A stretch of DNA of 44,105 bases from Candidatus Omnitrophota bacterium (GTDB lineage: Bacteria; Omnitrophota; Gorgyraeia; Zapsychrales; Fredricksoniimonadaceae), in NCBI GenBank assembly GCA_015233375.1, contig JADFXW010000002.1:1-44105 (forward strand), read 5' to 3'. This document shows, in pieces, positions 1,449 to 19,854 of the stretch. The position numbers and the translations under genes were made by a program. A model generated the notes under the pieces. That model saw only the letters and a list, made by a program, of their open reading frames with translations, was not told where the DNA came from and ran no database searches. Each line of letters begins with the position of its first letter. Within the stretch, counting starts at the first letter, position 1.

Positions 1449-1602
1449 TGTTCCCTGTACAACCCAATATACTTGATCCAAACCTGCTCTCACGACAGGT
1501 TTATAAAATGGTGAATACCTATTCAGGCCTTCGGACTTCCTTATATATTAAGGTCACCGCAGCGGGACTGTTCTTGAATCACACAAGATTTCCCTGAAAA
1601 AG
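1416..1602 (-). promoter_or_regulatory. Cobalamin (B12) riboswitch
   Basis: The minus strand reads TTCAGGGAAATC TTGTGTGATTCAAGA ACAGTCCCGCTGCGGTGA CCTTAATATATAAGG AAGTCCGAAGGCCTGAA. It shows the GGGAA core, a GTCCCGC..GT segment, and a B12-box-like AGTCCGAAGGCCTG whose CCTGAA can pair with the 5' TTCAGG. A terminator follows, then a TonB-dependent receptor gene. Recognised by eye against the remembered consensus; no covariance-model search was run. Confidence 0.75.
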
Positions 1603-1608
1603 CATGAG

Positions 1609-1617
1609 ATTATAACA
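1609..1617 (-). promoter_or_regulatory. Extended -10 promoter element (TGTTATAAT) for the riboswitch and receptor transcript
   Basis: The minus strand reads TGTTATAAT (a perfect TATAAT with upstream TG) a few nt before the riboswitch 5' end. It overlaps the stop codon of 1610..2107. No convincing -35 element. Confidence 0.45.
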
Positions 1618-2107
1618 AACGGGCTAAAACCTTTGTGCCTTCAGCTCGTTTTATAAGCCATTCATATCCAGCAAAAAACGCCAGCGTATAGCCTATAGTA
1701 CTTACTAAACTACTCCTAAAGAATGGAATCGCTAAAACATAACAAGCTTTTAGCCCTGCAACTGTATGCGGATAAAAATAAATCCAGGCCCCAAAATTTG
1801 AGACCAAAAAGAAAATAACGGCAGACAGAAGGCTTCCTGAAAATACTGATACAAAACCCTTCTGATTTCTAAGAGCAAGACCTAAAAGACTAATAAAAAC
1901 CATGCTGCCCCATGTAAAAATCATGCCTGGATAAAAACCAATAATAAAATCACTCCCCACCATCAAGGCCAATGGAATCCATATAGCCTTGCGGCCTTTT
2001 AAGTACATCCCGCTTAAAAAAGCCATGCTTAACACCGGTGTAAAATTAGGCGTATGAATAATAAGACGGGATAATATACCAATAGTGATAATAAAGAAAG
2101 CTAACAT
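1610..2107 (-). CDS. Small polytopic membrane protein, DUF6580-like putative transporter
   Basis: 165 aa, almost entirely hydrophobic segments. The N-terminal SRLIIHTPNFTPVLSMAFLSG resembles the H-x-PNFTP signature I associate, from memory, with DUF6580 putative transport proteins. Confidence 0.55.
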   Translation of the reverse strand: MLAFFIITIGILSRLIIHTPNFTPVLSMAFLSGMYLKGRKAIWIPLALMVGSDFIIGFYPGMIFTWGSMVFISLLGLALRNQKGFVSVFSGSLLSAVIFFLVSNFGAWIYFYPHTVAGLKACYVLAIPFFRSSLVSTIGYTLAFFAGYEWLIKRAEGTKVLARLL

Positions 2108-2138: not shown

Positions 2139-3269
2139 TCAAAGGATAATTATTTTGTCATGGATCATTTGATTGATAGAAACATAACTGCAATAACGAC
2201 ATTCCCTCCATTTTGGGGAAGAGGTCCTTATCCCATTGGACGCTTCAACTAAAATATGATGTAAAAAATCACTGTGAAACCATATCTCTTTAAAACTCTG
2301 CTCATTAACATTGCCCGCCACACAGACCCCCACATTATCACAAGGAGCAACCACCCTGCCCTTTTCATCAATATTGGCGTAAAACCAACCCGTATGACAA
2401 TGAATTTTCCCTCCCGTGCTGTCATAAAACAATAAACGATCATTATGCATCTTGGAATGCCTCATAGCCTCCACATCAACTAAAACTTGTTTATCTGAAA
2501 TCAGGTGATACAGTCCGTTTAAATCATGCTGAAAACTGTATGACTTTTGTAAGGCAGATTTAACGATGTTGCGTAATGAAATTAGCTGCTTTTTAGTAAA
2601 AACCAGGTCCTTCATCTGTTGAGTGGCCTTAAAAAATCGGATAACCACTTTATCAACACGACGCTGTTGGGCCATTTCTAAAAAAGCTTCTAATTCATGA
2701 AAATTACTGGAATAAAGGACAAAAGAAAGGACAATCTTGGGGGCCCCACGTTTTTGGCGGATAGCTAGAAGTCTCTCGATATTTTTTGACACAAGCTTGA
2801 AGGAAGCCCTGGACCCATGAATTTTCTTAAAAGATTCTTCGCTCATAGCAGAAAAATTCACGGTCAATTGAGAAGCTAAACATAAACCGGGCAAACAGCG
2901 GGGATTGACACCTAAATGGCTGTACACGACTAATTCCATCCCTAATTTTTTGACCATACGAAATGCTTGCAGCCACCCAGGATACAGCGTCACCTCGCCA
3001 CCTTCAAAATTAATTTGATCAACACCCATTTGGGCGCAGTCCTCTAACACCCTCTTTAACACCTTAAAATCCAACATCTTTTTGGGAGGATGACTTTTGA
3101 CGAATGGAGAAAAATACCAGCAAAACTCGCAACGATAATTGCAGGAATTGATGATATGGATATTAACGGACTTAGGCCCAATCAAAGGCTTGCCCATCAA
3201 GGCACTTTTGAGCCTAAGCTTGTCCTTTAAACGTGTATCTTTTATCTGCGAAATAAAATTAGTGGTCAT
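2139..3269 (-). CDS. Radical SAM protein with SPASM/twitch-like C-terminal Cys cluster
   Basis: INSCNYRCEFCWY carries the CX3CX2C motif. The C-terminus has CHTGW..APCDNVGVC..WRECRYC. Confidence 0.85.
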   Translation of the reverse strand: MTTNFISQIKDTRLKDKLRLKSALMGKPLIGPKSVNIHIINSCNYRCEFCWYFSPFVKSHPPKKMLDFKVLKRVLEDCAQMGVDQINFEGGEVTLYPGWLQAFRMVKKLGMELVVYSHLGVNPRCLPGLCLASQLTVNFSAMSEESFKKIHGSRASFKLVSKNIERLLAIRQKRGAPKIVLSFVLYSSNFHELEAFLEMAQQRRVDKVVIRFFKATQQMKDLVFTKKQLISLRNIVKSALQKSYSFQHDLNGLYHLISDKQVLVDVEAMRHSKMHNDRLLFYDSTGGKIHCHTGWFYANIDEKGRVVAPCDNVGVCVAGNVNEQSFKEIWFHSDFLHHILVEASNGIRTSSPKWRECRYCSYVSINQMIHDKIIIL

Positions 3270-3981
3270 AATGAATTTCGTTTAGAAAATCCGAAAATAA
3301 AATAATTTGCCAGCCCTTTGTATCTCTTAAGGACACAATATAATCAAAAAATTTGACTAATTCCTGACGCCGTTTTTCTGTTGAAAAATGTTTATGATGC
3401 AGCACAATCCCTGTAAAAGGCTTTTGTTGGGCATTTTTTACCAACATACGGACAACATCCATGGCCTTATAGAAAGTCATCTTACCCTGTTTATAAGAAC
3501 TAAACGAAACCTCTGCGGGCAGATTCATCAATTTATAATCGCCGCTAAACCTTCTGGATTTAGCTGAAAAAACCTTAAAACCTTGTTCCTCCACAAGCTT
3601 TAGCGTGTTTTTATCATACCCATGATACGGCGGAACAAAAGCTGGTGTAAAATGATCGCCAAAATCTGCCCTCATCTTTTTAAGGCCTTGGGCCATGTCT
3701 TGGCGTTGAACACTAAGAAGACGCCCTTTGCCAAACTCATATTTCATGTCTTTTGAAACAGAATGATTCGCATGAAGCCAGCCATGCTGGACAATATCCA
3801 GTAATTGCGGCATTTGTTCCTTGGCCTTATTAAGAAATTTAACAAGAGACCTATCCATTTTTCCTGGGATGACGGCATGGATAACTGGGACGTGACGATA
3901 TTGGGCTAAATTAAACAAAAACTTGAATTCTTTATCCAAGGTCCATACATCATCATTACGAATAAAAAGGCGTGCAGTCAT
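3259..3981 (-). CDS. Putative polysaccharide deacetylase-like protein (DUF2334/CE4-like)
   Basis: FIRNDDVW near the N-terminus and VQHGWLHANH resemble the metal-binding Asp and His motifs of deacetylase-fold proteins. The assignment is tentative. Confidence 0.5.
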   Translation of the reverse strand: MTARLFIRNDDVWTLDKEFKFLFNLAQYRHVPVIHAVIPGKMDRSLVKFLNKAKEQMPQLLDIVQHGWLHANHSVSKDMKYEFGKGRLLSVQRQDMAQGLKKMRADFGDHFTPAFVPPYHGYDKNTLKLVEEQGFKVFSAKSRRFSGDYKLMNLPAEVSFSSYKQGKMTFYKAMDVVRMLVKNAQQKPFTGIVLHHKHFSTEKRRQELVKFFDYIVSLRDTKGWQIILFSDFLNEIHYDH

Positions 3982-4009
3982 GATATTATTAAGTATACTA
4001 CTTTTTACT

Positions 4010-5200
4010 ATGCGTATCTTGTTCCATTATACCCATAAACAAACACTCGGCCATACAACACGTACCCATGCCCTTGTCAAGAGCCTTTGCCGCCACAAGG
4101 CCCAGGTCCTTCTTCTTCAAGGCGGGCTGCCTCAGCCTTTTGTCCGTTTTCCAAAAGAGTGTAAAATTTTAGACATCCCTGAACCTTTTGACGACCGCCG
4201 AAGCTTTCAATGGCACCAGCCCCCCGTTTCAGCAGTGAAACGTGCCCAATTTATTCTTAAAACAGCCGCTGATTTTTGCCCGGATGTTTTTATAACAGAA
4301 TTTTTCCCTTTTGGCCGCATGCCCTATATCCCGGAACTATTACCTGTGCTGCGCTTTCTTCGCAAAAAAAATACACGCATCATCGCAAGTATCGGCTATC
4401 CCTTAATCATTGACCTTAAACGTCTTTCAAATACAAAATTCGCTGCTTTGCACCAAGCCTTATTTGCCTTTTATGAAACCTTTTTAATTCATACGCCTGG
4501 CGATCTCGAGACCACCTATATTCAAAACAGCATTCAATCCCCTATTCTTGCTCAATCATACGCTCTTTTCATGAAAAAATTAAAAAAGAAAATCATCTAT
4601 ACTGGTTATGTTTTTCCTGAAAAAATGATGACCAAAGGCACCAAAATTTCCATTAAAAACAAAAAGAATCCCACGATTATCATCAGCCGCGGCGGCGGAT
4701 CGGTTTATCCAAAACTTATCACTAAGGCTATCGAAGCCCAACGCCTTCTTGATAATAATTGCAAGACCATTATCGCCTGTGGTCCTGCCACAACACCAAA
4801 AGAAATGGCTCTTTTCAAAGCCTGCCTTAAACAAAAAGACAGGCCCCGAGTTGTTTTAACTGATCATATTAATAATCTAGACGATGTGCTTAAGACCTGC
4901 AGCGTTTCAGTCAGTCTCTGCGGTTATAATACCTCTGTGCAATTAATGCGTTTTGGCACACCGTCTGTCATTGTCCCCTATAAAAACAACTTGTCTAGCG
5001 CCTCAACCAACGACCAAATCGCCCGTTCTAAGCTTCTGGTGGAACATTTCTCAAGCATCTGCCTTGACCACCAAAACCTCACAGCAAAATCCCTTGCGCT
5101 TGCTATCAAAGAACAACTAAGATCCCCAAGGCCACAACCCGCGCCTGAAAAATGGTTTAACGGCGCTGAAGCGTGTACGCGTTACGTTATGGGAAGATAA
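4010..5200 (+). CDS. GT28/MurG-like glycosyltransferase (COG4671-type)
   Basis: The ORF track runs from 3923. I prefer the ATG at 4010 (MRILFHYTHKQTLGHTTRTHAL), which matches the usual N-terminal strand and G-H loop of this family. The C-terminus has SRGGGS, LCGYNT and NDQ..R, typical of the GT28 C-domain. The 3' end overlaps the convergent gene 5182..6186 by 19 nt. Confidence 0.7.
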   Translation: MRILFHYTHKQTLGHTTRTHALVKSLCRHKAQVLLLQGGLPQPFVRFPKECKILDIPEPFDDRRSFQWHQPPVSAVKRAQFILKTAADFCPDVFITEFFPFGRMPYIPELLPVLRFLRKKNTRIIASIGYPLIIDLKRLSNTKFAALHQALFAFYETFLIHTPGDLETTYIQNSIQSPILAQSYALFMKKLKKKIIYTGYVFPEKMMTKGTKISIKNKKNPTIIISRGGGSVYPKLITKAIEAQRLLDNNCKTIIACGPATTPKEMALFKACLKQKDRPRVVLTDHINNLDDVLKTCSVSVSLCGYNTSVQLMRFGTPSVIVPYKNNLSSASTNDQIARSKLLVEHFSSICLDHQNLTAKSLALAIKEQLRSPRPQPAPEKWFNGAEACTRYVMGR

Positions 5201-6186
5201 GATAAATTGAAATCTTTCAAAAAACCATGATACGCCAAGCAGCCTGGACAATGGCCTTTGCGGGCTTTTTCGGCATAGGCCTCTCTCTTTAAATCCAACT
5301 TTTTGGGCAACTGACCACTTAAAGAAACCTTCCCTGCAGAGGGCCAGTACAGGCATGGATACACCTCTCGATAAGCATTAATAAACAAGGACTTTTCTGG
5401 CGTCAAGCATTGATGGATACAAGATTTGCTTTTTGACAACAAAACCAATAAAGCTTTAAGCATAGGGACATCGACCCCCTTGGAGCCTTCCTTTAATATC
5501 TTTGTTATCTGTTCATTGACTTCTTGTATCATCATGGGTGTGAGCATGGCCAAACTTTTTGCTTGCGGCATATCCTGTCGATGATAATAAGCAGATACGC
5601 CAGATTCCATGATTTTAGGCGAAAAACGCGCGTTCAAACGTTTCGCTAACTCATAAACATACCCGATCTCTTTAAAATTGACCCTGTTGACAGTAAACTT
5701 CAATTCCAAAATAATCTGATGCCCAAAATTTTTTGATAACCATTCCATTGTTTTTAAGGTCTTCTGAAACGCCCCTTTCCCTCGAATCCTGTCATGGATA
5801 TGAGGGGAACCATCAAGGCTTATCCCAACGTGGAGCCCAGATAAATCTTGTTCACAGGTGGAAAAAACCTTTCGGATGGACTCAAAAAAGGCGGCATTGG
5901 TATACACACCAAATCCTGTAATCTTTCCCTGTCTATATAAAACCGACAGGAGCTCCAAAATTCGGCCGCAATTCTTATTTAAAAAAGGCTCGCCACCTGT
6001 TATAGAAACAAAATTAAGCGTGTATCTCTCAAGAAAGGCTTGCATCAGACGAGCTACAAAGGAAGCTGTCATCTCATGAAGTGTCTTCTCAGTCCATATC
6101 CCGCAATGCCCACAACGCAACTGACAACGATTGGTGATTTCAATAGTAATGTCATTAAGCAAGGGTTTGATTATGTTTTTTCCCAT
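5182..6186 (-). CDS. Radical SAM protein with SPASM/twitch-like C-terminus
   Basis: TNRCQLRCGHCGIW carries the CX3CX2C motif. The C-terminus has CIHQC..YPC..GHCPGC. Confidence 0.85.
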   Translation of the reverse strand: MGKNIIKPLLNDITIEITNRCQLRCGHCGIWTEKTLHEMTASFVARLMQAFLERYTLNFVSITGGEPFLNKNCGRILELLSVLYRQGKITGFGVYTNAAFFESIRKVFSTCEQDLSGLHVGISLDGSPHIHDRIRGKGAFQKTLKTMEWLSKNFGHQIILELKFTVNRVNFKEIGYVYELAKRLNARFSPKIMESGVSAYYHRQDMPQAKSLAMLTPMMIQEVNEQITKILKEGSKGVDVPMLKALLVLLSKSKSCIHQCLTPEKSLFINAYREVYPCLYWPSAGKVSLSGQLPKKLDLKREAYAEKARKGHCPGCLAYHGFLKDFNLSYLPIT

Positions 6187-7712
6187 GCGTCAATTTCTCC
6201 ATCTGATACCTTAACTAAATTTCTTAAGGGAATGATTTTCTTGATATCCTCCATTGTAGATTGCCCTGGTATCTGATACATCAAAGAACAATACACCACA
6301 ACCCCTCTTAAGTCTGACAAATCTTTTTTCATCCTATTCATTTCTTTAAGATACGAAGAATTTGGCTTGAAAGACAACGGGTCCATTTTAAATGGAAAAG
6401 GGATTGCTTTAAGAGATAACCTGCTATAAAGCGCCATCACATTATTGGAATAAATCAACTTGGTCTTAGAAATTTTCTGGGCTTCCTTAATAATAGCTGA
6501 TTGGCTCCAAACCTTCCCATCATAAAAAAGCCCCTCATGATACCTGTTCATGCCCCATTGAAAAGCCCCAGGGACATTAATAGCAATCAAATATATCAAC
6601 AAACAAAACACAAAACAAAATTTCAAGAAATTCTGCTCTCTTACCACCGAGAATAAAATATGGACGGATCCTAAGCAAAACAACAAGCCAAAAACTTCTA
6701 TAGGAAAAAAATACCTGGTACTTTGGGCCAAGCCATCCATCCATCCAACAACAAAACCCCAAGATAATAAATAAAGACAAGAAAAAATAAATAAAACCCC
6801 TAGAAACCATATCTTTATCTCTGGGATGCCTTGAACCCTCGCGGCATCCCTATTTTTAAAAATACCCCATCCTGCGACCATCATGCCTGCTATTAATAAA
6901 ACCACGCTTGATATTGAAACTGCGAGGTGATTGGTCAGTAAGGCACAACCCTTAATGTCCGCAATTAAATAGGGATGAAAGGCGATGATGCGGTCTGTTA
7001 AATGGCCTGTGATAACCACATTGACCAGCATCCACGTCATCATGGGCAACAAAGCCGCGAAAGAAAATACCCCTGCGCGCTTGAGACCTATTGGCCAGCC
7101 TTCTCTGTTTTCTAATAACAAAATAATCCCCCCTGTTAAAACAAACGGGACACCTGCAAACCTTGTTAGACATGCTAAGGCCGCGGACATGGCAGAGGCC
7201 CAAAGAAATAAACTTCTTTTATTCTCAAGAAAATTCATCAAAAACACAAACCACAAAAGCCCTAAAAACATAAATAAAGGCTCAGACATGGCTTCTGAAT
7301 AGAAATACAAATTATCAATTTTTACCAACATCCATAAAAGAGCGGCCCAGGTCATCCAAAAGGCATTGGTGTATCTATAAATCAAAAAACCCACCAAGAA
7401 AATATTTATGCCAAAAAGCGTTGCATTCAACCATCTGGCTGCATCAACGGGACCCGGGCCGCCAAACCAATGGATAATAGCCAAAAAATAAGGAAACAGC
7501 GGCGGATAATGCTGCCAAACAAAGGTCCCCATGGTATAATCCCATCGACAAGAATCAAGGCCACTCAAACATTTGGCCATAAAGATATACATCACTTGAG
7601 GCTGCCCCACACCCCATTTCGAAGTCAGCAACATAATAAGGAAAAAGCCTGCTAAACTTAAAACAACAAGAAGAGCAAACCGTAGAAAATTTTTAAATAA
7701 AAAAGTATTCAT
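6171..7712 (-). CDS. GT-C-fold (ArnT/PMT-like) polytopic membrane glycosyltransferase, paralog of 11992..13563
   Basis: 513 aa with more than 10 hydrophobic segments and a soluble tail of about 100 aa. It aligns closely by eye with 11992..13563 (WQHYPPLFP, IHW.GGP, ARWLNA, LLYRYT, IDNLY.YS.AM.EPLF, CLTRFAG.P). Confidence 0.7.
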   Translation of the reverse strand: MNTFLFKNFLRFALLVVLSLAGFFLIMLLTSKWGVGQPQVMYIFMAKCLSGLDSCRWDYTMGTFVWQHYPPLFPYFLAIIHWFGGPGPVDAARWLNATLFGINIFLVGFLIYRYTNAFWMTWAALLWMLVKIDNLYFYSEAMSEPLFMFLGLLWFVFLMNFLENKRSLFLWASAMSAALACLTRFAGVPFVLTGGIILLLENREGWPIGLKRAGVFSFAALLPMMTWMLVNVVITGHLTDRIIAFHPYLIADIKGCALLTNHLAVSISSVVLLIAGMMVAGWGIFKNRDAARVQGIPEIKIWFLGVLFIFSCLYLLSWGFVVGWMDGLAQSTRYFFPIEVFGLLFCLGSVHILFSVVREQNFLKFCFVFCLLIYLIAINVPGAFQWGMNRYHEGLFYDGKVWSQSAIIKEAQKISKTKLIYSNNVMALYSRLSLKAIPFPFKMDPLSFKPNSSYLKEMNRMKKDLSDLRGVVVYCSLMYQIPGQSTMEDIKKIIPLRNLVKVSDGEIDAWEKT

Positions 7713-8821
7713 TAATGATGATTCCTAAAGAAAGCGCGACACGCGTCAATGACGAAACCTGCCTTCTCAACACTCATAAACGAAGGCAAGGGAAGATGTA
7801 GGGCTTGGGTAAAATATTTATCACTCACCTTAAATTGTTTTTTATTTAATCTCTTAAAAGCGGACATTTGGTGAAGGGGCACATAAGGCTTTTGAACCGT
7901 AATCCCTTTCTCTTTTAGAAACCATGACAATTTGTCTCTTTGAGAACAAAAAACCACAAAATTCTGCGCCACACTTTCTGTCAGAGGCTTATCTTTAAAA
8001 AAAGTCAACCCTTTAATGCCCTCAAGGCCTTGCTCATACAACGCCTTTATTTGATGACGGGATTGAATAATCTCAGGCAAATGCTTCCACTTGACCTCTA
8101 AGGCCATCAGATCCATAAAAGAAAGGGGCGCAAATCTCTGGCCCAGGCTTAAAAGATCCTCATCATCACGCCAATCCTCCTGCCAACGCCGGATTTGAGT
8201 ACCCTGTTGTTTATCACACACAACCATTCCCCCGCCACCCGCGCAAGATGAAAGAGGCTTATAATAAGAAAAAGAAAACACCGACATGTCCCCGAAACTT
8301 CCCAACATGCAGCCTTTATAACGCGAACTTTCTGCCTGGCAAACATCTTCAATAAAAACAATCCCCTTGCCCTTACATATTTTTTTGATAGCCTCCACAT
8401 CACAAGGCCGGCCAAACATATGAGCGCCAATCACTGCTTTTGTTTTTTTGGTTATAGCTAACCTTAGCAGCTGCGGGTCTATTTGGAGATCGTCAGCCCT
8501 GGCGTCAACAGGCACAGGCTTTGCCCCGCAATAAAAAACCGCTAAGGCAACCGCCTGATAGGTCAAATCAGGGACAATCACTTCATCCCCTTTTTTAACA
8601 CCAGCCAAAAGCAAGGCTATTTTCAAGGCGTCACTGCCCGAATTAACAGAAACCGCCTCTTTGACACCAATATACCTGGCAAAAGACCTTTCAAACTCAT
8701 AGGTCAGGGGTTTAATATCATTAAGACCACCTACCTTTTTTAGCGTTTTTTCCATCAAAGAGGCATACTCACGGGCAAGGGCCTTTTCTACCAAAATACT
8801 CTCGTATCTTATTTCTGACAT
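7712..8821 (-). CDS. DegT/DnrJ/EryC1/StrS-family PLP-dependent sugar aminotransferase
   Basis: SGSDALKIALLLAGVKKGDEVIVPDLTY, and FSFSYYKPLSS as the candidate PLP-lysine region. A strong SD (AAGGGGGAG) precedes the ATG. Confidence 0.85.
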   Translation of the reverse strand: MSEIRYESILVEKALAREYASLMEKTLKKVGGLNDIKPLTYEFERSFARYIGVKEAVSVNSGSDALKIALLLAGVKKGDEVIVPDLTYQAVALAVFYCGAKPVPVDARADDLQIDPQLLRLAITKKTKAVIGAHMFGRPCDVEAIKKICKGKGIVFIEDVCQAESSRYKGCMLGSFGDMSVFSFSYYKPLSSCAGGGGMVVCDKQQGTQIRRWQEDWRDDEDLLSLGQRFAPLSFMDLMALEVKWKHLPEIIQSRHQIKALYEQGLEGIKGLTFFKDKPLTESVAQNFVVFCSQRDKLSWFLKEKGITVQKPYVPLHQMSAFKRLNKKQFKVSDKYFTQALHLPLPSFMSVEKAGFVIDACRAFFRNHH

Positions 8822-8827
8822 TATTTC

Positions 8828-8876
8828 GAACTCCCCCTTGCCCCCCTCTTTAATCGCTTCGCAAAGAGGGGGAACT
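8828..8876 (-). repeat. Hairpin plus G-rich (SD-like) unit, copy 1 of 2
   Basis: The minus strand reads TTCCCCCTCTTT-gcgaagcgatt-AAAGAGGGGG-gc-AAGGGGGAGTTC. The same architecture occurs at 37905..37944 on the plus strand. Both copies lie immediately 3' of a stop codon in the direction of transcription. Confidence 0.7.
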
Positions 8877-8877
8877 A

Positions 8878-9888
8878 TTAATTGTAAAGAATCAGCATTT
8901 TTCTATCTATCTGCTCAATCTGTTCACATAACTCAATATAACTATTCACTCTTGACTTATAACACGAACCTGCTTTTGTTTCAACAGCCTTACGGGCGTT
9001 AAAATTGCTGACAGCCCTGTAACTGGATTGTGGATTTCTTGCAATAAAATTGCTTAAATCTGTAAAATATGATTTTGCCCCTTTTAAAAATTGCCCTGAA
9101 GGGCCTAAACCAAAATCCATCAAATAAAAGTCTTTTCGGACCTCTTCTGGAAACGATAATAATACCCAATTCCCAAGAACCTTGCCATTAGGTAAAGCTA
9201 ACATATCCCATATCCCTGTTGAAGGCTTGCTATATCCTCTTCCAATCAAGCCATATCTTTTTTCTTTTAACTCCCAAAGAGAAGACTCTCGATACAGGTC
9301 TAAGAATATTTTGGATGCTGATTTATCCCAATTTTCAAGGAAGGCAGGATGTACTTCAATAGACCTTAAACCAATGCTCGCCAAATATTTTAAATTTTCA
9401 AAAAGATTATCTACGGATTGGGGCCGAACTGTCATAGTCGCTGTCAATGGGCCTTTTGAGGACACCGCCAGATTAACCCCATGGACAATATCATCGAAAT
9501 CCCCGCCTTCAATGCCCGGCCTGTTTTTTATCGTGGTATCCTTTTTTCCATCAATCCCCACCTCAAGATTAATCCCGTTATCCAAAAAAAACTTCATCAA
9601 ATTATTATTTAATAAGGTCGCATTCGTTTGAACAGAAATATACCTGTCCAGCTTCTCATTCTTTATCCTTGTAATCATTTCACGAAGTAAATCAGCCTCT
9701 ATCAGAGGTTCCCCTCCTGAGAAAATAAATTCCAGAGGTGCTTGAGAACGAACAAATTCAAGGATATGTTTAAAAATACCGATATCCATGACTTCTTGGC
9801 GCGTACGGTGTTTGTAAAAACAATATCCGCAACCCAAATTGCAGCGGTCCGTGAAAAAAAGCCAGACGTGATTGATTTTATTGATCAT
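8878..9888 (-). CDS. Radical SAM protein, anSME-like N-terminus, no obvious SPASM cluster
   Basis: FTDRCNLGCGYCFYKH carries CX3CX2C in the CNLxCxYCF context typical of anSME/SPASM-family maturases, but the C-terminal half has few Cys. Tandem paralog of 9878..10915. Confidence 0.8.
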   Translation of the reverse strand: MINKINHVWLFFTDRCNLGCGYCFYKHRTRQEVMDIGIFKHILEFVRSQAPLEFIFSGGEPLIEADLLREMITRIKNEKLDRYISVQTNATLLNNNLMKFFLDNGINLEVGIDGKKDTTIKNRPGIEGGDFDDIVHGVNLAVSSKGPLTATMTVRPQSVDNLFENLKYLASIGLRSIEVHPAFLENWDKSASKIFLDLYRESSLWELKEKRYGLIGRGYSKPSTGIWDMLALPNGKVLGNWVLLSFPEEVRKDFYLMDFGLGPSGQFLKGAKSYFTDLSNFIARNPQSSYRAVSNFNARKAVETKAGSCYKSRVNSYIELCEQIEQIDRKMLILYN

Positions 9889-10915
9889 TTTTTATACAAA
9901 TCTTCACATGCGCACGTTGTAAAAATTTTAAAATATTATTGATGGCCCCGGCATTCAAATAAGCATAGCCCATCATTTTGTTGACCAACTTAAAATGATG
10001 CATCACAAATTCACGATAGGTCAAATAAGGACGGCCGTTATATAACCGCTTATACGCCTCCTGATAAAAAGACAATACTTCCTGTCGTATCTGGCCTGTT
10101 TTAATGTCCCAAATGCTAAACTCCTGGCGTTTATTTTCCGGTAAACATAAAAATGGATCTCCTGCCAACAGATGACCTGGTGGATGAAGGCTTAAATCCA
10201 TGTCTCCTGGACGTATCATTTCCTTGTCTTCTTGTGCATACATCAAAGAGCGTAAATCTTTATTTTTCAAGATAGCTAAATAATTCCGTTTAAAACATGC
10301 TTGGGCATCTTTGTCCCAAGTCATAAAAGCAGCAGGCGTCACATCCATATGAGGAAATCCTAAATCCTTCAAAAATGTTACCCCCTCCCTGATGCGCGAC
10401 GCTTCACGAGGATGCACCGTCATGGTCGTGCCACAGGCAAGATCCGCCTTCATACACTCTTTAATGTTATCAGTTAATCTGTTAAATGTGTCTGGCTTTA
10501 ATCCACGCCTATGCCTTGTCGTGACATCAAAATATCCGTCTATGCCAAATTCAAGGCTTACCTTAAGACTTTTAAGATATTTGATGTCCTTTTTATCAAT
10601 CAACACCCCATTGGTCTGAATATGTAAGGAGGTTTTCTTTAAAAAACGCTTGGCCTTTTCTAAAATTTGATACAGCAGGTCCTTGGCTAAAAATGGTTCT
10701 CCGCCGCTAAGAATTAAAGTGGAAGGTTCTGTTTGGTGATATTTAAATAATGAGAAAAACCTGTTAACAGCTTGGAGTGAAATGTCCTTCAAACCCTTGT
10801 GGCGAAAAAAACAATAATCACAGTGCAGATTGCAGCGCTCTGTCACATAAATCCAGGCATAATGGACTTTAATTCTATTGTTTTCTCGCGTCGATAAAAT
10901 ACCTGATTTTGCCAT
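9878..10915 (-). CDS. Radical SAM protein, anSME-like N-terminus, no obvious SPASM cluster
   Basis: VTERCNLHCDYCFFRH and GGEPFL. Its 5' end overlaps the upstream gene by 41 nt if the only in-frame ATG is used. Confidence 0.8.
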   Translation of the reverse strand: MAKSGILSTRENNRIKVHYAWIYVTERCNLHCDYCFFRHKGLKDISLQAVNRFFSLFKYHQTEPSTLILSGGEPFLAKDLLYQILEKAKRFLKKTSLHIQTNGVLIDKKDIKYLKSLKVSLEFGIDGYFDVTTRHRRGLKPDTFNRLTDNIKECMKADLACGTTMTVHPREASRIREGVTFLKDLGFPHMDVTPAAFMTWDKDAQACFKRNYLAILKNKDLRSLMYAQEDKEMIRPGDMDLSLHPPGHLLAGDPFLCLPENKRQEFSIWDIKTGQIRQEVLSFYQEAYKRLYNGRPYLTYREFVMHHFKLVNKMMGYAYLNAGAINNILKFLQRAHVKICIKNDQ

Positions 10916-12053
10916 TCAATGTCCGAGGGATTGCCCCTTCATGTTTTCTGATTTCAATACAACGATCTAGGCCGATTTTTTGAACCACCACATCCTTCAA
11001 AACCCTTAAATCTTTAGCCTGAAGTTTAACAATATTAATGAAAAGTTTATCATAATACCGTTGAGGGTCCTTATCAATCACAAAAAAGAAGCTGGGGTGC
11101 TTGAGGACATCATTCACCGTACGGATTAATTCCTGTTTTAAAACAACAACTCCATTGATAAGCAAGCTTTCCTGTATGCGACCTTGCACCTTAATCCATA
11201 AACCTTCTTTGTCCCTCTTGAGTTGGACGCGGTCTCCTAAACGATACCTGATAAAAGGCATGCACGTATTATTCAAATCCGTGACCAATAAATCCCCTTG
11301 ACCACTCTCTGATGCTAATTCATTATCGAGAACCTCCAACAAAAGCCCATCCGCCACCACCTTCATATATTCATCATGAGGCGCAAGCGCACACGCCAAA
11401 CCTGAAATCTCCATGGCCCCGTAGTGGTCATGAACACGTACGCCCCCCAAACATTCAATCCTTTGACGGTAATCTGGCCATAAAGGCTCTCCATTAACCA
11501 AACAGCGTTGAATAGAATGTTTTTTCCCTAATAGCGCAAAAAGGTCAAAAAGCTGATTGGTATACGCATTAACCAGGGTTGGTTTAAAAGTCTTGATAAG
11601 AAACACAGCTTCTTGTAATTTCTCAGCCGTGCTCACAGGTCCCAACGGTATCACCCCTGCACCTGCGGCCTTGAAAGCACTTTCCATAAGACGACCACCG
11701 CTGTTTAGATCATAGGAACATAGGTTTAAGCATAAAGCCCCCTCTTTAACGCCAAATAAACGATAAATCTTGACCAAACGGCTCAAATGAGCTTCATACG
11801 CTTGTCTTGAATGGGCAATCAGCAGCCTGGATGATGTTGAGCCAGAGGTTGCTGTCAGATTAAAAACCGTATCCGCAAAACCTGTCTTTAGAAAATCCTT
11901 CATCTGTTCTCTTGAAGTGACCGGGACACGCTTAAAATCATCCCAAGAGCGAAGATGGACCTTCCAACGCTTATCTTTCTTGGAAAAAAAATTAAATAGT
12001 TGATTTACTTTCTTTAATGCTTGGGGAGTAAACATATATTTGTCCATCAGCAA
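10875..12053 (-). CDS. PaaK/CapK/F390-synthetase-like adenylate-forming enzyme
   Basis: LTATSGSTSSRLL is the P-loop-like AMP-binding motif. The length and overall pattern fit the COG1541-type family. The start is uncertain (ATGs at 12053, 12047 and 12035); all three overlap the 3' end of 11992..13563. Confidence 0.7.
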   Translation of the reverse strand: MLMDKYMFTPQALKKVNQLFNFFSKKDKRWKVHLRSWDDFKRVPVTSREQMKDFLKTGFADTVFNLTATSGSTSSRLLIAHSRQAYEAHLSRLVKIYRLFGVKEGALCLNLCSYDLNSGGRLMESAFKAAGAGVIPLGPVSTAEKLQEAVFLIKTFKPTLVNAYTNQLFDLFALLGKKHSIQRCLVNGEPLWPDYRQRIECLGGVRVHDHYGAMEISGLACALAPHDEYMKVVADGLLLEVLDNELASESGQGDLLVTDLNNTCMPFIRYRLGDRVQLKRDKEGLWIKVQGRIQESLLINGVVVLKQELIRTVNDVLKHPSFFFVIDKDPQRYYDKLFINIVKLQAKDLRVLKDVVVQKIGLDRCIEIRKHEGAIPRTLNGKIRYFIDARKQ

Positions 12054-13563
12054 CTTTAACCAGCATTTTTAATGGGATTTCTTTTTTTAATTCTTCTTCA
12101 CTCACCATTCCAGGCATCTTAAATTTCATTAACCCATACACTAAAACGGCCCTTTGACGGGACAAAGCCTCCTTCATTTGCTTTATTTGATCATTATACG
12201 CTAAATTGGGCCTTAAAGATAACGGGTCTTTTTGATAAGCTAAAGGCAGCGCTCGACGTCCTGTTAAAAAATACAGGGCCATAAAATTGTTTGAATAAAT
12301 CAGAGTGTCTGCAGAAATCTTTTTTACCTCGCTTATAATAGCGGATTTGTCCCATTCCCTTCTATCAAACGCCACCCCTTCGTTATACCTTACAACTCCC
12401 CACGCTAATGCTCCTGGCAGATTTAAACCAATCACATAGGTCATCAAAAGAATGGCAAACGTGCTTTTTAGCAAACGAGAGGATCTGGTCACTGAAAACA
12501 ACAAATGCACGCACAAAAGACAAAAAAATAATTCAAAAACCTCCACAGGAAGAAAATATCTCCCCCTTTTAGCTAAACTATCCAAAAAACCAACAACAAT
12601 GCCCCATGACACAAAATAAAAGAATATAAAAAAAACTATTATCGTTATGAATCTCATTGTTGAGTTGGGGACACCCTTCAGGGCCCAAGAGTCTCTATTT
12701 CTAAAAATCATCCATCCTAATAAAACCATCCCCAGCATCAATACTAAGACAAGATCAGTCTCCCCAGTTGAGAGATGATTAATCAGCCCTGGATATCCTT
12801 TCATCCCTAAAATGGACAACGGATGAAAAGAAATCATCCGATCAGTCCAATGACCTGAATGTAAGAAATTCACAACGCCCCATAAGGTCAGTGGAAGTAA
12901 ACTTAAACACCCAAACGCAACCGCCCAAATACGTGATTTCAGCCAATCCTTTTGAAAAAACAAAAGCAATGCCCCTGTCAAAACCAACGGTATCCCCGCA
13001 AATCGGGTCAAACAGGCCAATCCAGCAGCCATTGAACAGAAGCCAAAAGATATCCTGCTTTTTGTTTCCATAAAATCTGTTATAAAAAACAACCAAAGAA
13101 GCGTTAAAAAAATAAACAAAGGTTCTGTCATGGCCATTGAGTAGGAATACAAATTGTCAATCCTCACCAGCATCCATGATACCCCTATCATTGAGAGCCA
13201 GAAATTCTTCGTATACCTATAAAGCAAAATACCAACCAAACAGATATTCATTCCAAAGAAAAAGGCATTGAGCCAGCGTGCGGTGTACAAAGGATCTGGG
13301 CCTCCCAGCCAATGAATCAAGGCCATTATTATGGGGAACAATGGTGGATAATGCTGCCATAAAGAAACACCTTGGGACGGCCAACCAAATAAATCCAAAC
13401 CACTTAAACACCTCGCCATATAAATATAAAAAACCCCATCACCCTCAACCCCTACCCCTCTTTTAGATGTCATCCATATAATGAGGACAAAACCAGCACA
13501 ACCAACTAAAAGAAAGGCGAGAATGCGCAGCCAACACTTTATCTTTTGTTCATCGGGTGTCAT
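11992..13563 (-). CDS. GT-C-fold (ArnT/PMT-like) polytopic membrane glycosyltransferase, paralog of 6171..7712
   Basis: 523 aa with the same architecture and shared motifs as 6171..7712. Carries the post-TM1 acidic/aromatic motif GDGVFYIYMARCLSGLD. Confidence 0.7.
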   Translation of the reverse strand: MTPDEQKIKCWLRILAFLLVGCAGFVLIIWMTSKRGVGVEGDGVFYIYMARCLSGLDLFGWPSQGVSLWQHYPPLFPIIMALIHWLGGPDPLYTARWLNAFFFGMNICLVGILLYRYTKNFWLSMIGVSWMLVRIDNLYSYSMAMTEPLFIFLTLLWLFFITDFMETKSRISFGFCSMAAGLACLTRFAGIPLVLTGALLLFFQKDWLKSRIWAVAFGCLSLLPLTLWGVVNFLHSGHWTDRMISFHPLSILGMKGYPGLINHLSTGETDLVLVLMLGMVLLGWMIFRNRDSWALKGVPNSTMRFITIIVFFIFFYFVSWGIVVGFLDSLAKRGRYFLPVEVFELFFCLLCVHLLFSVTRSSRLLKSTFAILLMTYVIGLNLPGALAWGVVRYNEGVAFDRREWDKSAIISEVKKISADTLIYSNNFMALYFLTGRRALPLAYQKDPLSLRPNLAYNDQIKQMKEALSRQRAVLVYGLMKFKMPGMVSEEELKKEIPLKMLVKVADGQIYVYSPSIKESKSTI

Positions 13564-14617: not shown

Positions 14618-16072
14618 CTAAAATTGAAAATAAAGAAACCTGTTTTGTCCATAACAACCCCAAAAGACCATTGCTAAAACTAATCCGTAATAATAAGTCC
14701 AGCGCACCCATGCTGGGCTTTTGGCAAATACAAATTCATCACCTGCATTTTCCTGCAATAAATCCATAATCAAAAGAAATGCGATTAACTCCACTGTCAA
14801 CAACCACCATCTTTGATCAAAACCTGAGAATATTCGCCCTTGATCCCACGCATGCCCCCAGCCCTGAGGCAAACGGCTAATAATATCAAAAGACTCGTCC
14901 AAACTCCTGGCCCTGTAGAAAAACGAGAAAAAACTAAACAAAAAGAAGCATGTCAATACTTGCCATAGTTGAACAAAAATGTTGTTCCTGTCTAAACCAA
15001 TCATTTGATATATTTTTTGCCTGATTTCGCAGGTTCCTCTTGAACAGACCACATATATCCCTAATAATAAAAAAGCAAGAATATAGGTCCAATCTGCACC
15101 ATGCCAAAAACCTGAAAATAAGAACGCCAGAAAAACCGCTATCCAGCGTTTATCACGTAAAAACTGATTTTGGCATAACGGCACATAAACATAGTCCTTG
15201 ACCCAGCTAAAAAAAGTTATATTCCAACGCGTCCAATATTCCGCAATCGATCGAGAAAAGAATGGAAATCTAAAATTATTCGTCAAACGAAACCCCATCG
15301 CCTTGGCGCTCCCAATCGCCATATCACAATAACCAGAAAAATCACAATAAATTTGAAATGCAAAAAGGACAGCCGCTATAACAAAGGCTGGGCCTTGAAA
15401 CTCATGCGGATTATCAAAAACCCTGTCCACCAAGTCTTTGAGGCGGTCTGCAATGACCACCTTCTTAAACATCCCCCAAGCCATTAATTTTAAAGCGTCC
15501 GTTATCCTTTGATAATCCACTTCATGTTTCTGACGAAGTTGAGGAATTAAATGATATGGTCTTTCAATAGGGCCTGCGACCAACTGCGGATAAAACATCA
15601 CATAAAGGGCATAAATACCAAAATGCCGTTCTGCTTTTTGCCTGCCACGGTATACTTCAATGACGTAAGAAAGGCTTTGTAAGGTATGAAAAGAAAGCCC
15701 TATGGGTAAAAGAAAACGGATGAGCTTTAAAGGATACTGCACACCAAAAAAACCTGCCAAAGCCCATATATTTGAACTAAAAAAGTTGAAATATTTAAAT
15801 ATAAACCAAACCACGCAGGTGGCTGCGATGCTCATTATTAAGTATCTTCTCGCATAACGGTTCTTAAGGCGCGCTTGCTCAATCAAAAGCCCCATCGCGT
15901 AATCAATCACAATCAATAGCAATAAAATAAAAATATATTGCGGCACAAACCACATATAAAAAACACAACTGGCCATCAAAAGCAAGGCCCAACGAAAACG
16001 ATGGGGACAAATAAAATAGGAAGCTGTCACAATCGGAAAAAAGATTAAAAAAGAAAAAGAATTAAAAAGCAT
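14618..16072 (-). CDS. MBOAT-family membrane O-acyltransferase (AlgI/DltB-like)
   Basis: 484 aa and polytopic. FSGFWHGADWTY holds the conserved MBOAT His. The overall AlgI/DltB-like pattern is present (YPQLVAGPIERP). Confidence 0.85.
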   Translation of the reverse strand: MLFNSFSFLIFFPIVTASYFICPHRFRWALLLMASCVFYMWFVPQYIFILLLLIVIDYAMGLLIEQARLKNRYARRYLIMSIAATCVVWFIFKYFNFFSSNIWALAGFFGVQYPLKLIRFLLPIGLSFHTLQSLSYVIEVYRGRQKAERHFGIYALYVMFYPQLVAGPIERPYHLIPQLRQKHEVDYQRITDALKLMAWGMFKKVVIADRLKDLVDRVFDNPHEFQGPAFVIAAVLFAFQIYCDFSGYCDMAIGSAKAMGFRLTNNFRFPFFSRSIAEYWTRWNITFFSWVKDYVYVPLCQNQFLRDKRWIAVFLAFLFSGFWHGADWTYILAFLLLGIYVVCSRGTCEIRQKIYQMIGLDRNNIFVQLWQVLTCFFLFSFFSFFYRARSLDESFDIISRLPQGWGHAWDQGRIFSGFDQRWWLLTVELIAFLLIMDLLQENAGDEFVFAKSPAWVRWTYYYGLVLAMVFWGCYGQNRFLYFQF

Positions 16073-16143
16073 TTAAACTCCATAATAGATACCCCGCCTT
16101 AACAAACATGGTTCTGATTATCTTTTAATTCACGCATGGCGTG

Positions 16144-16323
16144 TTTATAGACACATTGAAAGTTCTTTTAGAAACATTAAGGGATTTTTCGCCAAAAGTC
16201 GTCAAGGTTTTGCGCCCATTGTTTTCTAAAGCATCCTTAGTATATTTGGAAAACAATGGGCGCAAACCGTAGACGACGGCGAAAATATCCCGTTTCTAAA
16301 AGAACTTTCAATGTGTCTATAAA
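16144..16323. repeat. Long palindromic intergenic element E1 (subfamily I)
   Basis: TTTATAGACACATTGAAAGTTCTTTTAGAAAC...loop CTAAAGCATCCTTAGTATATTTGG...GTTTCTAAAAGAACTTTCAATGTGTCTATAAA. The outer and innermost stems are perfect; the mid-stem has conserved bulges. Homologous to E2 (33979..34160). Confidence 0.9.
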
Positions 16324-16331
16324 CCTCGCTC

Positions 16332-17255
16332 TCATCCACGCCTTGACAGACGTGGAATTCTCGCTTTGTTAAAACTACGTAAAACCATATCAAGCGCTGG
16401 TGTCTTTACGCCTATCTTGTGCGCTTCCTTCACTATAGCTTGTGTTATATAATCAATTTCTGTCGGACGACAGGCTTTTATATCTTGAAATAATGTCCCT
16501 CGATGAAGGATCCCTTTGAGATCCCCATGACGGACCCTCATTATCAGCTTCATAGGATCAAAACCAAGCTTTATCCCTAACGCTCTGGCTGTAGCCTTTC
16601 CTTCTTTGACGGCATCCTGGACTAATTTCCAAATATTCTTGTCCTTGGCTAAAATATCATATCCTTGATTCGTGATAACCGGCAAAGGGTTCATCACTGA
16701 GCTAAAAATAAGTTTTGCCCATACCACGCGGTCAGCCGCCCGGAAGACCTTACAGGGCATTTGGCATTGTTTAAAAATTCTTCCCACCATGGGGGCCCCA
16801 TCACCCCCAAGATACATCTGCCCTTGATAAAAAACATCCACTTCACCTGGGGCTTTTTCTTGGCACGCCATCGTGGTGGTGCCTCGGCAAATCAGCGCTT
16901 TTTTAAACAATTTTCCTGCCCAAGAGATATCAAACAAACCATTTTGAAGGAACAAAACACATCCAGGATTAAGAAATGCCACATCCTGAAGAGCTTTTCT
17001 AAAATCCATTATTTTGGTTGCTATAATCAGGACATCAACATCCAACCCTTGTAATTGGCTGATAGACTCAACAGAGTAGATTTGTGCCTTTCTTGACTGT
17101 CCCTTTTCTTTTAAAATGATCCTATTATTCTTAAGCGCTTTTCTTATAAAAAGGTTCTTGTCAAACACAGTCACATGCACCCTTCTAGACAAAAGAGCAG
17201 CCAAACTTTTTCCCAACGCCCCTTGACCAATCACAATAATCCTAAACATCCTCAT
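16332..17255 (-). CDS. 2-dehydropantoate 2-reductase (PanE/ApbA)-family NAD(P)-dependent oxidoreductase
   Basis: N-terminal Rossmann motif IIVIGQGALGKSLAALL. The C-terminal CRPTEIDYITQAIVKEAHKIGVKTP is typical of the ApbA C-domain. The last 13 codons lie inside repeat-module sequence. Confidence 0.75.
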   Translation of the reverse strand: MRMFRIIVIGQGALGKSLAALLSRRVHVTVFDKNLFIRKALKNNRIILKEKGQSRKAQIYSVESISQLQGLDVDVLIIATKIMDFRKALQDVAFLNPGCVLFLQNGLFDISWAGKLFKKALICRGTTTMACQEKAPGEVDVFYQGQMYLGGDGAPMVGRIFKQCQMPCKVFRAADRVVWAKLIFSSVMNPLPVITNQGYDILAKDKNIWKLVQDAVKEGKATARALGIKLGFDPMKLIMRVRHGDLKGILHRGTLFQDIKACRPTEIDYITQAIVKEAHKIGVKTPALDMVLRSFNKARIPRLSRRG

Positions 17256-18411: not shown

Positions 18412-18415
18412 TGTC

Positions 18416-19840: not shown

Positions 19841-19854
19841 CTTTCTTAGCCTCT

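Follow-up and report, generated by a model that had tools for sequence, protein, structure and literature searches.

The window analysed here, the first 44,105 nt of contig JADFXW010000002.1 (assembly GCA_015233375.1), comes from a Candidatus Omnitrophota bacterium and carries on its minus strand a near-gapless run of genes, from position 24897 down to 1610, that is rich in radical S-adenosylmethionine (SAM) enzymes. Omnitrophota are widespread, uncultured and ultra-small bacteria that are suspected to be predatory or parasitic (PMC10066038). Within this run, the interval 5182-13563 had been described as a radical-SAM module bracketed by two membrane proteins of the glycosyltransferase (GT) C type. 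All open reading frames (ORFs) of the interval were found in the predicted order on the minus strand (Table 1). They overlap or sit at most 57 bp apart, and thus look like one operon. Families were assigned with Pfam and NCBIfam profiles and judged against the cut-off of each model; the Pfam scan covered the window ORFs of at least 100 aa. The predicted total of nine radical-SAM proteins with ten domains on the 23-kb minus strand also holds, with two Radical_SAM stretches (Pfam) in the 833-aa protein. As an evolutionary unit, however, the bracketed interval does not stand, since the conserved unit runs from the PaaK-like gene through the gene of the 376-aa radical-SAM/SPASM protein. Judged by sequence comparison, the region is the local copy of an undescribed radical-SAM-rich cluster conserved across Omnitrophota; no description of it was found in the literature searched, including the two large Omnitrophota genomics papers.

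Table 1. Features of the window in order of position, with strand, supporting match and place in the cluster.
Feature	Position	Strand	Match or basis	Place
TonB-dependent receptor gene, partial, runs off the window	1356 to 1	-	Plug 56.5 bits	
Terminator-like hairpin, after the riboswitch	1449-1422			
Cobalamin riboswitch	1505-1637	-	RF00174, 32.3 bits (gathering 31.5)	
Radical SAM/SPASM protein, 376 aa	2139-3269	-	Pfam Radical_SAM 52.4 bits, SPASM 32.7 bits (cut-off 21.5)	last core gene
DUF2334 protein, 240 aa, related to polysaccharide (NodB-type) deacetylases	3259-3981	-	Pfam DUF2334 49.3 bits	core
GT-B glycosyltransferase, GT28 C-terminal (MurG-type)-like	4010-5200	+	Pfam Glyco_tran_28_C 42.2 bits	core
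rSAM334, twitch-type radical SAM, 334 aa	5182-6186	-	Pfam Radical_SAM 61.4 bits	core
GT-C paralog, 513 aa	6171-7712	-	48% identity to 523-aa paralog	slot DegT/rSAM334
DegT/DnrJ/EryC1-type sugar aminotransferase, pyridoxal phosphate (PLP)-dependent, 369 aa	7712-8821	-	Pfam DegT_DnrJ_EryC1 (PF01041) 254.9 bits (cut-off 19.8)	core
rSAM336, radical SAM, 336 aa (CNLGCGYCFY)	8878-9888	-	Pfam Radical_SAM 59 bits	core
rSAM345, radical SAM, 345 aa (CNLHCDYCFF)	9878-10915	-	Pfam Radical_SAM; paralog of rSAM336	core
PaaK-like adenylate-forming enzyme, 386-392 aa	10875-12053	-	NCBIfam PaaK ~70 bits	first core gene
GT-C glycosyltransferase, 523 aa, ArnT/PMT-like	11992-13563	-	AlphaFold2 and Foldseek	accessory module
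p343, 343 aa, one N-terminal transmembrane helix	13565-14596	-	no Pfam match	accessory module
MBOAT membrane O-acyltransferase, 484 aa, DltB-like	14618-16072	-	Pfam MBOAT 89.6 bits	accessory module
Nested near-perfect palindrome, ~182 nt	16143-16324		33-nt arms, 100% and 88% complementarity	PanE/MBOAT gap
PanE/ApbA-family NAD(P)H reductase	16332-17255	-	Pfam ApbA and ApbA_C	
Upstream radical-SAM block, five proteins	17242-24897	-	Pfam and NCBIfam	
833-aa protein of this block	22396-24897	-	B12-binding radical-SAM module fused to MiaB-like module (UPF0004 and radical SAM)	
GT2 protein	28211-29131		best matches TuaG, WcaA	
509-aa membrane protein	36366-37895			
Remote relative of GT-C family, polytopic	39850-41271	-	no Pfam match; hhalign	
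Remote relative of GT-C family, polytopic	42386-43906	+	no Pfam match; hhalign	

ORFs were called in 12 related loci, 11 of them independent (L035 and L117 are near-duplicates) and all from Omnitrophota where named, and were compared with the window proteins. The core follows the order PaaK-like enzyme, rSAM345, rSAM336, DegT aminotransferase, rSAM334, GT28-like GT-B on the opposite strand, DUF2334 protein and radical-SAM/SPASM protein, and in the window extends from 12053 down to 2139. This order is kept at 54-72% identity in L001, L032, L035, L114 and L117-L119; in L033 (Ca. Velamenicoccus archaeovorus), L038, L039, L115 and L116 the core genes are shuffled and share 30-48% identity. The rSAM345 gene is always coupled to the PaaK-like gene. 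In L114 and L119 rSAM334 comes directly after DegT, an adjacency that is ancestral, and PanE is directly followed by PaaK, as it nearly is in L032. Directly upstream of the core, L001, L032, L114 and L118 carry homologs of the upstream radical-SAM block (50-62% identity), and L115 has weaker ones. Co-occurrence with the operon at 16.3-24.9 kb, which had been proposed as a check, was thus observed: the PanE-like gene and genes of B12- and HemN-like radical-SAM enzymes usually lie just upstream of the core. The natural unit is the core together with the PanE-like gene and the upstream radical-SAM block, and not the interval between the GT-C genes.

Judged from gene order and sequence, the GT-C genes are accessory to the core; they lie in two slots of variable content, and their bracketing of the module is a local accident of these two insertion slots. 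The slot between DegT and rSAM334 holds a GT-C of the same family in the window and L001, an unrelated 530-aa protein with a weak PMT_2 match in L035 and L117, one or two SPASM enzymes in L003, L032 and L118, and nothing in L114 and L119. The slot between PanE and PaaK, empty in L114 and L119, contains MBOAT, p343 and the 523-aa GT-C in the window. In L035 and L117 it contains a GT-C (34% identical), two ketosynthases (KS), an acyl carrier protein (ACP), an MBOAT, two p343 homologs and a GDSL lipase, and a third PMT_2 protein is encoded between the GT28-like gene and DUF2334. A single cluster, L117 480-19184 (and the near-identical L035), therefore combines three GT-C-type proteins of three families with the KS-KS-ACP set, the MBOAT, the p343 pair and the lipase. 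Altogether, 6 of 13 clusters (window, L035 and L117 each counted) have GT-Cs inside or next to the core, and these belong to at least three unrelated families. This repeated recruitment of non-orthologous GT-Cs is indirect evidence that a periplasmic GT-C can receive the product of the cluster. In L119, an Arn-like triad (2562-6872) was detected immediately upstream of the PanE-PaaK core; it consists of a GFO/IDH/MocA oxidoreductase-DegT fusion of 695 aa, a GT2 of 249 aa and a PMT_2 GT-C of 487 aa. The idea that the GT-C family of the window is intrinsically bound to the cluster was ruled out, as the loci from Chloroflexota and other phyla (L005-L031) never carry its radical-SAM genes.

The MBOAT protein is 68% identical to that of L035/L117 and scores 118.9 bits with the DltB model TIGR04091 (cut-off 375). 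Its companion p343 has no Pfam or NCBIfam match; it travels with the MBOAT gene, which in L035 and L117 is followed by two tandem homologs (42% identity). The palindrome, unique in the window, lies exactly between the PanE and MBOAT genes, where the inserted MBOAT-p343-GT-C module meets the conserved core. As RNA it is predicted to fold into one long hairpin (-110 kcal/mol, z = -18.4), and it could be a MITE-like (miniature inverted-repeat transposable element) scar, a terminator or a processing site.

Three radical-SAM enzymes are characteristic of the core. The CX3CX2C motif is invariant in the homologs of rSAM336 (CNLGCGYC), rSAM345 (CNLHCDYC) and rSAM334 (CQLRCGHC). rSAM345 and rSAM336 are paralogs (28% identity, E = 7e-39), and in the rSAM345 family GGE, QTNG, GxDG, MTVHP, DxTPAAF and DLSLHPP are invariant besides CX3CX2C. 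All catalytic motifs of the tandem pair are intact, thus the two proteins are not pseudo-enzymes (inactivity would have spoken against the original prediction), and from their sequences the radical-SAM enzymes of the core look active. The pair had been described as similar to the anaerobic sulfatase-maturating enzyme (anSME) without a Cys-rich SPASM tail; the fold and the missing SPASM cysteines agree with this, but each protein keeps one conserved C-terminal Cys (the near-invariant C257 in rSAM345, and C321, beyond CX3CX2C, in rSAM336). The Pfam SPASM model has no match in rSAM334, rSAM336 or rSAM345, and the seven-Cys motif is incomplete in all three. That motif binds two auxiliary clusters, while the twitch domain holds one auxiliary cluster, which is fully ligated in BtrN (PMC6231123). 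In rSAM334, C260, C278, C313 and C316 are invariant in 12/12 homologs. Therefore, this protein, formerly called radical-SAM/SPASM-like, is indeed a radical-SAM enzyme, but appears twitch-like with one auxiliary cluster instead of a full seven-Cys SPASM domain.

The AlphaFold2 (AF2) model of rSAM345 (pLDDT 93.5) is closest in fold to CteB, ChlB and anSME (TMq about 0.63), then to SkfB and SuiB (~0.6); the sugar/nucleotide enzymes BlsE, viperin and DesII rank after these peptide maturases. The proposed comparison of the tandem pair with anSME, BtrN and DesII therefore returned an anSME/CteB-like fold with DesII and BlsE among the matches, but BtrN was outside the top 50. With the NCBIfam model of anaerobic sulfatase maturases (TIGR03942) 59.0 and 59.2 bits were obtained (59 for rSAM336) at a cut-off of 349.45, and the DesII model gave no match for rSAM334, rSAM336 and rSAM345. 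Profile searches matched rSAM334 to SkfB (E = 5e-22) and anSME across residues 16-308, and the alignments with anSME and CteB extend through the C-terminal domains of these two. All named members of the rSAM345 family, including that of Ca. Velamenicoccus archaeovorus, are from Omnitrophota. An exhaustive search of 1.84 billion representatives recovered just 47 clusters (50% identity) at E <= 1e-30; it also returned proteins of 700-1300 aa in which an rSAM345-like core occurs 2-4 times. A metagenome scan with the rSAM345 alignment yielded mostly generic radical-SAM loci and about six true family members.

In the 376-aa radical-SAM/SPASM protein C291, C310, C357 and C360 are invariant, and its orthologs (55-64% identity) have the same position in L001, L032, L035, L114 and L117-L119. 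The upstream block encodes a HemN-like pair (491 and 477 aa), a B12-radical SAM protein of 389 aa, a MiaB-like protein of 383 aa and the B12-radical SAM/MiaB-like fusion of 833 aa. The L001 homolog of the latter (62% identity) corresponds to the first half only (453 aa), thus the fusion may be lineage-specific. A cobalamin riboswitch, a terminator-like hairpin and a partial TonB-dependent receptor gene follow at the edge of the window (Table 1); riboswitch and receptor look like B12 uptake adjoining a cluster with B12-dependent radical-SAM enzymes.

The presence of a DegT aminotransferase and a PaaK-like enzyme, as originally predicted, was confirmed, and both are intact. The aminotransferase contains the PLP lysine in 'SFSYYK', and its nearest solved relatives are the sugar 3-aminotransferases QdtB, DesV and WbpE; it also matches 2-deoxy-scyllo-inosose and scyllo-inositol aminotransferases. 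None of its NCBIfam equivalogs is reached (LegC 169.8 vs 420, PseC 164.2 vs 423.5, ArnB 126.3 vs 631 and DesI 127.2 vs 650 bits; likewise WecE). The PaaK-like protein matches Pfam AMP-binding weakly and was identified by NCBIfam (70.5 and 69.4 bits against equivalog cut-offs of 700 and 646) and by a sequence search of the PDB (PaaK, E = 4e-17 to 5e-13). Its motifs TSGSTS, YGAMEISG, YRLGDRV and NGK are readable, and its family has named members from Omnitrophota only. By sequence, it appears to share the adenylate-forming fold and motifs alone with PaaK phenylacetate-CoA ligase, and the acylation or amidation of the original prediction finds no backing beyond this fold, from which it had been inferred. 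The GT-B protein scores 25.8 bits with MurG (TIGR01133, cut-off 250) and has orthologs of 394-402 aa (56-69% identity) on the opposite strand in all close loci. Its mechanically called ORF (3923-5200, plus strand) is probably 29 codons over-long; the likely start is ATG 4010, with 'MRILFHYTHKQTLGH' as the apparent true N-terminus. With this start the ORF would no longer overlap the divergent DUF2334 start and would lose its N-terminal transmembrane (TM) helix, an artefact of over-extension given the length of the homologs. The DUF2334 protein has an additional weak Polysacc_deac_1 match and syntenic orthologs (47-56% identity). PDB sequence searches with the GT28-like and DUF2334 proteins gave no significant match.

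The two GT-C paralogs are identical at 48% of 504 residues (E = 1e-158). Profile searches of the PDB with the GT-C alignments gave no significant match, and the fold therefore had to come from structure prediction. For the 523-aa protein, AF2 gave a model of pLDDT 92.7 from 50 homologs, and its first Foldseek match in the PDB is ArnT (5F15; E = 2.4e-7, TMq 0.58, identity 12%), followed by DPY19, STT3/PglB/AglB, AftA, ALG9/12 and Pmt4, with Emb structures also present; GT-C enzymes account for 36 of the 37 top matches, in agreement with the predicted GT-C identity. Pfam PMT scores 21.5 bits with this protein, below the gathering score of 22.7, and neither PMT nor PMT_2 matches the 513-aa paralog; many homologs at ~30% identity carry precomputed PF13231 or PF02366 matches. 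In the model TM1 spans residues 3-31, and D42 (consensus 'GVxPDSxxY') opens the following helix 42-53. Every GT-C_A enzyme has a catalytically essential Asp at the tip of juxtamembrane helix 1 (PMC12041299), and the same placement was described for several solved GT-Cs (PMC11127046). D42 probably matches this catalytic Asp. It is kept in 49 of the 50 sequences of the family alignment, and the sole exception is the 513-aa paralog, which reads 'GVG--QPQVMY', with Pro in the D42 column and a two-residue deletion, and retains the other near-invariant residues P74, E147, R187 and R335. Lacking the family Asp, the 513-aa GT-C is probably not a working transferase; its sequence suggests that it was maintained while transferase activity was probably lost. 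In the neighbour-joining tree, which had been suggested as a check, the two copies are sisters in 200/200 bootstraps, the 513-aa branch being slightly longer, and we concluded from this sequence comparison that the duplication is specific to the lineage of this genome.

Two remote relatives of the GT-C family bring the window to four GT-C-like proteins. In hhalign comparisons with the family, the minus-strand protein reached a probability of 93.6% (E = 2e-7) and the plus-strand protein 96.8% (E = 2.5e-10), and both keep an Asp aligned with D42. The 509-aa membrane protein, also considered as a GT-C relative, is unrelated.

Taken together, the cluster would be a case of envelope glycoconjugate tailoring in which radical-SAM enzymes are unusually numerous. 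The most likely interpretation, to which we give a probability of roughly 50%, is that this Omnitrophota-specific cluster serves the oxygen-independent synthesis or tailoring of an envelope glycoconjugate that contains an amino sugar. The sugar context is provided by the DegT enzyme with its high Pfam score (254.9 bits) and sugar 3-aminotransferase relatives, and by a polysaccharide operon on the other strand, in the other half of the window, that encodes GT4, GT2, NodB deacetylase, Acetyltransf_6 (GNAT-type), methyltransferase and Acyl_transf_3 proteins. In such a pathway, the GT-B would attach a hexosamine-type sugar to a carrier and the DUF2334 protein would de-N-acetylate it. The radical-SAM enzymes would then perform an oxidation, epimerisation or deoxygenation that is elsewhere done by short-chain dehydrogenase/reductase (SDR) or O2-dependent enzymes, and DegT would aminate the resulting keto group. 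For this keto group, rSAM334 beside DegT would be the best candidate, as a BtrN-like dehydrogenase; the alternative would be a DesI/DesII-type deamination. No SDR dehydratase/oxidoreductase, nucleotidyltransferase or 4,6-dehydratase was detected in the 44 kb, which makes rSAM334 plausible as a BtrN-like keto source. As in BtrN with BtrS/BtrR and DesI with DesII, a radical-SAM gene adjoins that of a DegT-family aminotransferase, and rSAM334 has a four-Cys auxiliary site as in BtrN. DesII has no auxiliary cluster and in this resembles the tandem pair rSAM336/rSAM345. DesII and BlsE are among the structural matches of rSAM345. In contrast, BtrN is outside the top 50 of these, the DesII profile gave no match, and no 4,6-dehydratase or inosose synthase is encoded here. 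The PaaK-like enzyme may adenylate a carboxylate for N-acylation or amidation.

In lineages with GT-C genes, the Asp-bearing GT-C would transfer the lipid-linked product outside the cytoplasmic membrane. The original prediction of periplasmic transfer by dedicated GT-Cs is in line with the GT-C fold and the repeated GT-C recruitment, but both GT-Cs lie in variable slots, and the 513-aa copy without Asp is probably not a working transferase. The arrangement resembles ArnB/ArnC/ArnT, which place 4-amino-4-deoxy-L-arabinose (L-Ara4N) on lipid A, as a DegT-family aminotransferase is encoded with a GT-C, the best structural match is ArnT, and an Asp follows TM1. However, equivalents of ArnA, ArnC, ArnD, ArnE and ArnF are lacking in the window, the ArnB and ArnC models stay far under cut-off, the aminotransferase is embedded among radical-SAM enzymes, and the GT-C is duplicated with one copy lacking the Asp. 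Three-component periplasmic glycosylation systems such as GtrA/GtrB/Gtr* and the polyprenyl-phosphate-ribose synthase/MATE/GT136 system (Kelly et al. 2024, PMC11127046) likewise use a GT-C as an accessory add-on in a glycan locus, and by analogy a polyprenyl-phosphate-linked donor would be expected outside the cytoplasm. In contrast to them, no lipid-phosphate sugar synthase and flippase were found in the window, although L119 has a GT2 beside its GT-C. The sole GT2 of the window scores 27.3 bits with ArnC (cut-off 529) and lacks a TM helix, and apart from a DUF6580 protein the window has no small membrane protein.

The Asp-less 513-aa paralog may serve as a non-catalytic partner. Like the heteromeric pairs Pmt1-Pmt2 and EmbA-EmbB, the two paralogous GT-Cs are encoded together, and Pmt and Emb are among the Foldseek matches. 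In Pmt1-Pmt2 and EmbA-EmbB both subunits keep their catalytic residues, whereas here the 513-aa copy has no Asp. Finally, MBOAT and p343 may O-acylate the product outside the cytoplasm. As in the Dlt systems (DltA/B/C/D), genes of a single-pass membrane protein and an adenylating enzyme accompany that of the MBOAT, for which DltB is the best match, and in L117 a carrier protein adjoins the MBOAT. In contrast to Dlt, the window has no carrier protein and p343 no DltD match. A Dlt-like pairing of the PaaK-like enzyme with the MBOAT was set aside, as the PaaK-like gene belongs to every core with or without MBOAT.

It is tempting to go further and to combine these observations into a phylum-wide O2-independent pathway. 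In it, at least three uncharacterised radical-SAM families, two of them anSME-like with a single conserved Cys in place of auxiliary clusters, would act on a sugar and not on a peptide and, together with DegT, the PaaK-like ligase, the GT-B and the NodB-like enzyme, give an envelope amino-sugar conjugate not seen elsewhere; GT-Cs would have been recruited several times independently, and the dead GT-C would be the obligate partner of its active sister. This extended scenario is tentative, and we consider it doubtful as a whole.

Several observations weigh against an amino-sugar glycoconjugate. No cluster protein attains any NCBIfam equivalog cut-off and only superfamily-level assignments hold (GT-C_A fold, DegT, radical SAM, adenylate-forming); hence no pathway step has an assigned substrate, and the original statement that the specific chemistry cannot be read from the sequence is upheld. 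The closest characterised relatives of rSAM334, rSAM336 and rSAM345, namely PapB, CteB, ChlB, SkfB and anSME, modify peptides, DesII reaches a TMq of just 0.55-0.59 with the rSAM345 model, and BtrN is missing among its top 50 matches. The lack of a nucleotidyltransferase and of a nucleoside diphosphate (NDP)-sugar dehydratase in the window counts in the same direction, and the uronic-acid derivative of the original prediction is not borne out, as no uronic-acid or NDP-sugar-forming enzymes were found there. Likewise, neither a GtrB/ArnC-type polyprenyl-phosphate glycosyltransferase among the window proteins nor a flippase of the GtrA, SMR or MATE Pfam families among the scanned ORFs was detected, and the assignment of D42 as the catalytic Asp is based on its position and conservation and not on superposition. 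The KS-KS-ACP genes in the accessory module of L035/L117 point to a lipid moiety, and the core often lies beside housekeeping genes (PGK-TIM-SecG), a setting that would also suit a cofactor or lipid role.

The strongest competing explanation, although clearly less probable, is the synthesis or tailoring of a membrane lipid or glycolipid, in which the radical-SAM enzymes, including the B12-, HemN- and MiaB-like ones, modify alkyl chains, the sugar enzymes form the head group, and GT-C and MBOAT decorate it. In the L035/L117 lineage the KS-KS-ACP set, with the MBOAT and GDSL lipase that are also part of the cluster, suggests that the product carries an acyl or polyketide group. The two top NCBIfam matches of the 389-aa B12-radical SAM protein are TIGR04013 and TIGR04072 ('lipid biosynthesis B12-binding/radical SAM protein', both ~110 bits), ArnT as the closest GT-C fold modifies lipid A, and phylum-wide conservation with housekeeping neighbours (PGK-TIM-SecG flank the cluster in L033 and L116) would fit a structural envelope component. 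However, KS-ACP genes are absent from the window and most loci, every lipid-family match is well under cut-off, and the core has no acyltransferase or lipid-synthase gene. Furthermore, a lipid product overlaps the proposed amino-sugar glycoconjugate instead of excluding it.

Prepilin-peptidase-like (Peptidase_A24) genes are located beside the cluster in L001 (1-315), L003 (4032-4910), L114 (35-1959), L116 (2171-4344) and L118 (1848-3742), and in L114, L116 and L118 they overlap a radical-SAM gene. Their recurrent pairing with a radical-SAM gene would fit peptide or protein maturation, either of a ribosomally synthesised and post-translationally modified peptide (RiPP) or of a surface protein such as pilin, with radical-SAM enzymes acting on the polypeptide and a PMT-like GT-C glycosylating it in the periplasm. 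The nearest Pfam family of the GT-C is protein O-mannosyltransferase, and for rSAM336, rSAM345 and rSAM334 the highest-ranking matches in NCBIfam, the PDB and Foldseek are enzymes that mature peptides (PapB, CcpM, CteB, ChlB, SkfB and anSME). anSME, CteB and SkfB share with the three core enzymes CX3CX2C, the topology and part of the C-terminal domain. However, these matches cover the generic radical-SAM core alone and stay far under the family cut-offs, the tandem pair lacks the SPASM cysteines, and no RiPP recognition element (RRE) or PqqD match (Pfam) was found. The short gaps in 5182-13563 leave no room for a precursor gene, and a small-ORF conservation screen returned antisense or alternative-frame artefacts of conserved genes alone. 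As the invariant partners are of sugar type (DegT, GT-B and NodB-like), we regard peptide maturation as improbable.

APH-family kinases and small Asn_synthase/QueC-like proteins recur near the cluster. The kinases, together with the inosose and inositol aminotransferases among the DegT matches, would agree with a diffusible aminoglycoside- or aminocyclitol-like molecule, or a cofactor, as product. With its GT, deacetylase, radical-SAM enzyme and DegT, the cluster is reminiscent of the route from paromamine to neamine and of butirosin synthesis (BtrN/BtrS, NeoL/NeoM). However, neither an inosose synthase nor any other gene for cyclitol formation was detected in the window, the membrane-bound GT-C and MBOAT and the adjacent polysaccharide operon favour an envelope product, and conservation throughout a phylum with reduced genomes would be unusual for a secondary metabolite, which leaves this option slightly more improbable than peptide maturation. 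An ordinary O-antigen or capsule pathway to a known sugar (pseudaminic or legionaminic acid, Ara4N or a dideoxy-amino sugar), the placement that would have contradicted the original prediction, is highly improbable: LegC, PseC and dTDP-4-amino-4,6-dideoxygalactose transaminase are the best NCBIfam matches of DegT (160-170 bits) and its pairing with a GT-C recalls ArnB and ArnT, but the cut-offs lie far higher (375-631 bits), PseB, PseI, PseF, ArnA, ArnC and RmlABCD-type genes are missing in the 44 kb, and for seven of the core and accessory families either every named relative is from Omnitrophota or Pfam has no family.

For the annotation of such genomes, the unit of interest should be redrawn to 2139-12053 together with the PanE-like gene and the upstream radical-SAM block. 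The GT-C pair is a natural case for asking whether non-catalytic partners can evolve among GT-C enzymes. If the product is indeed an amino-sugar conjugate, Omnitrophota would spend four to nine radical-SAM enzymes on a phylum-specific envelope molecule, and new radical sugar chemistry, including that of SPASM-less anSME-like enzymes, would be added to what is known.

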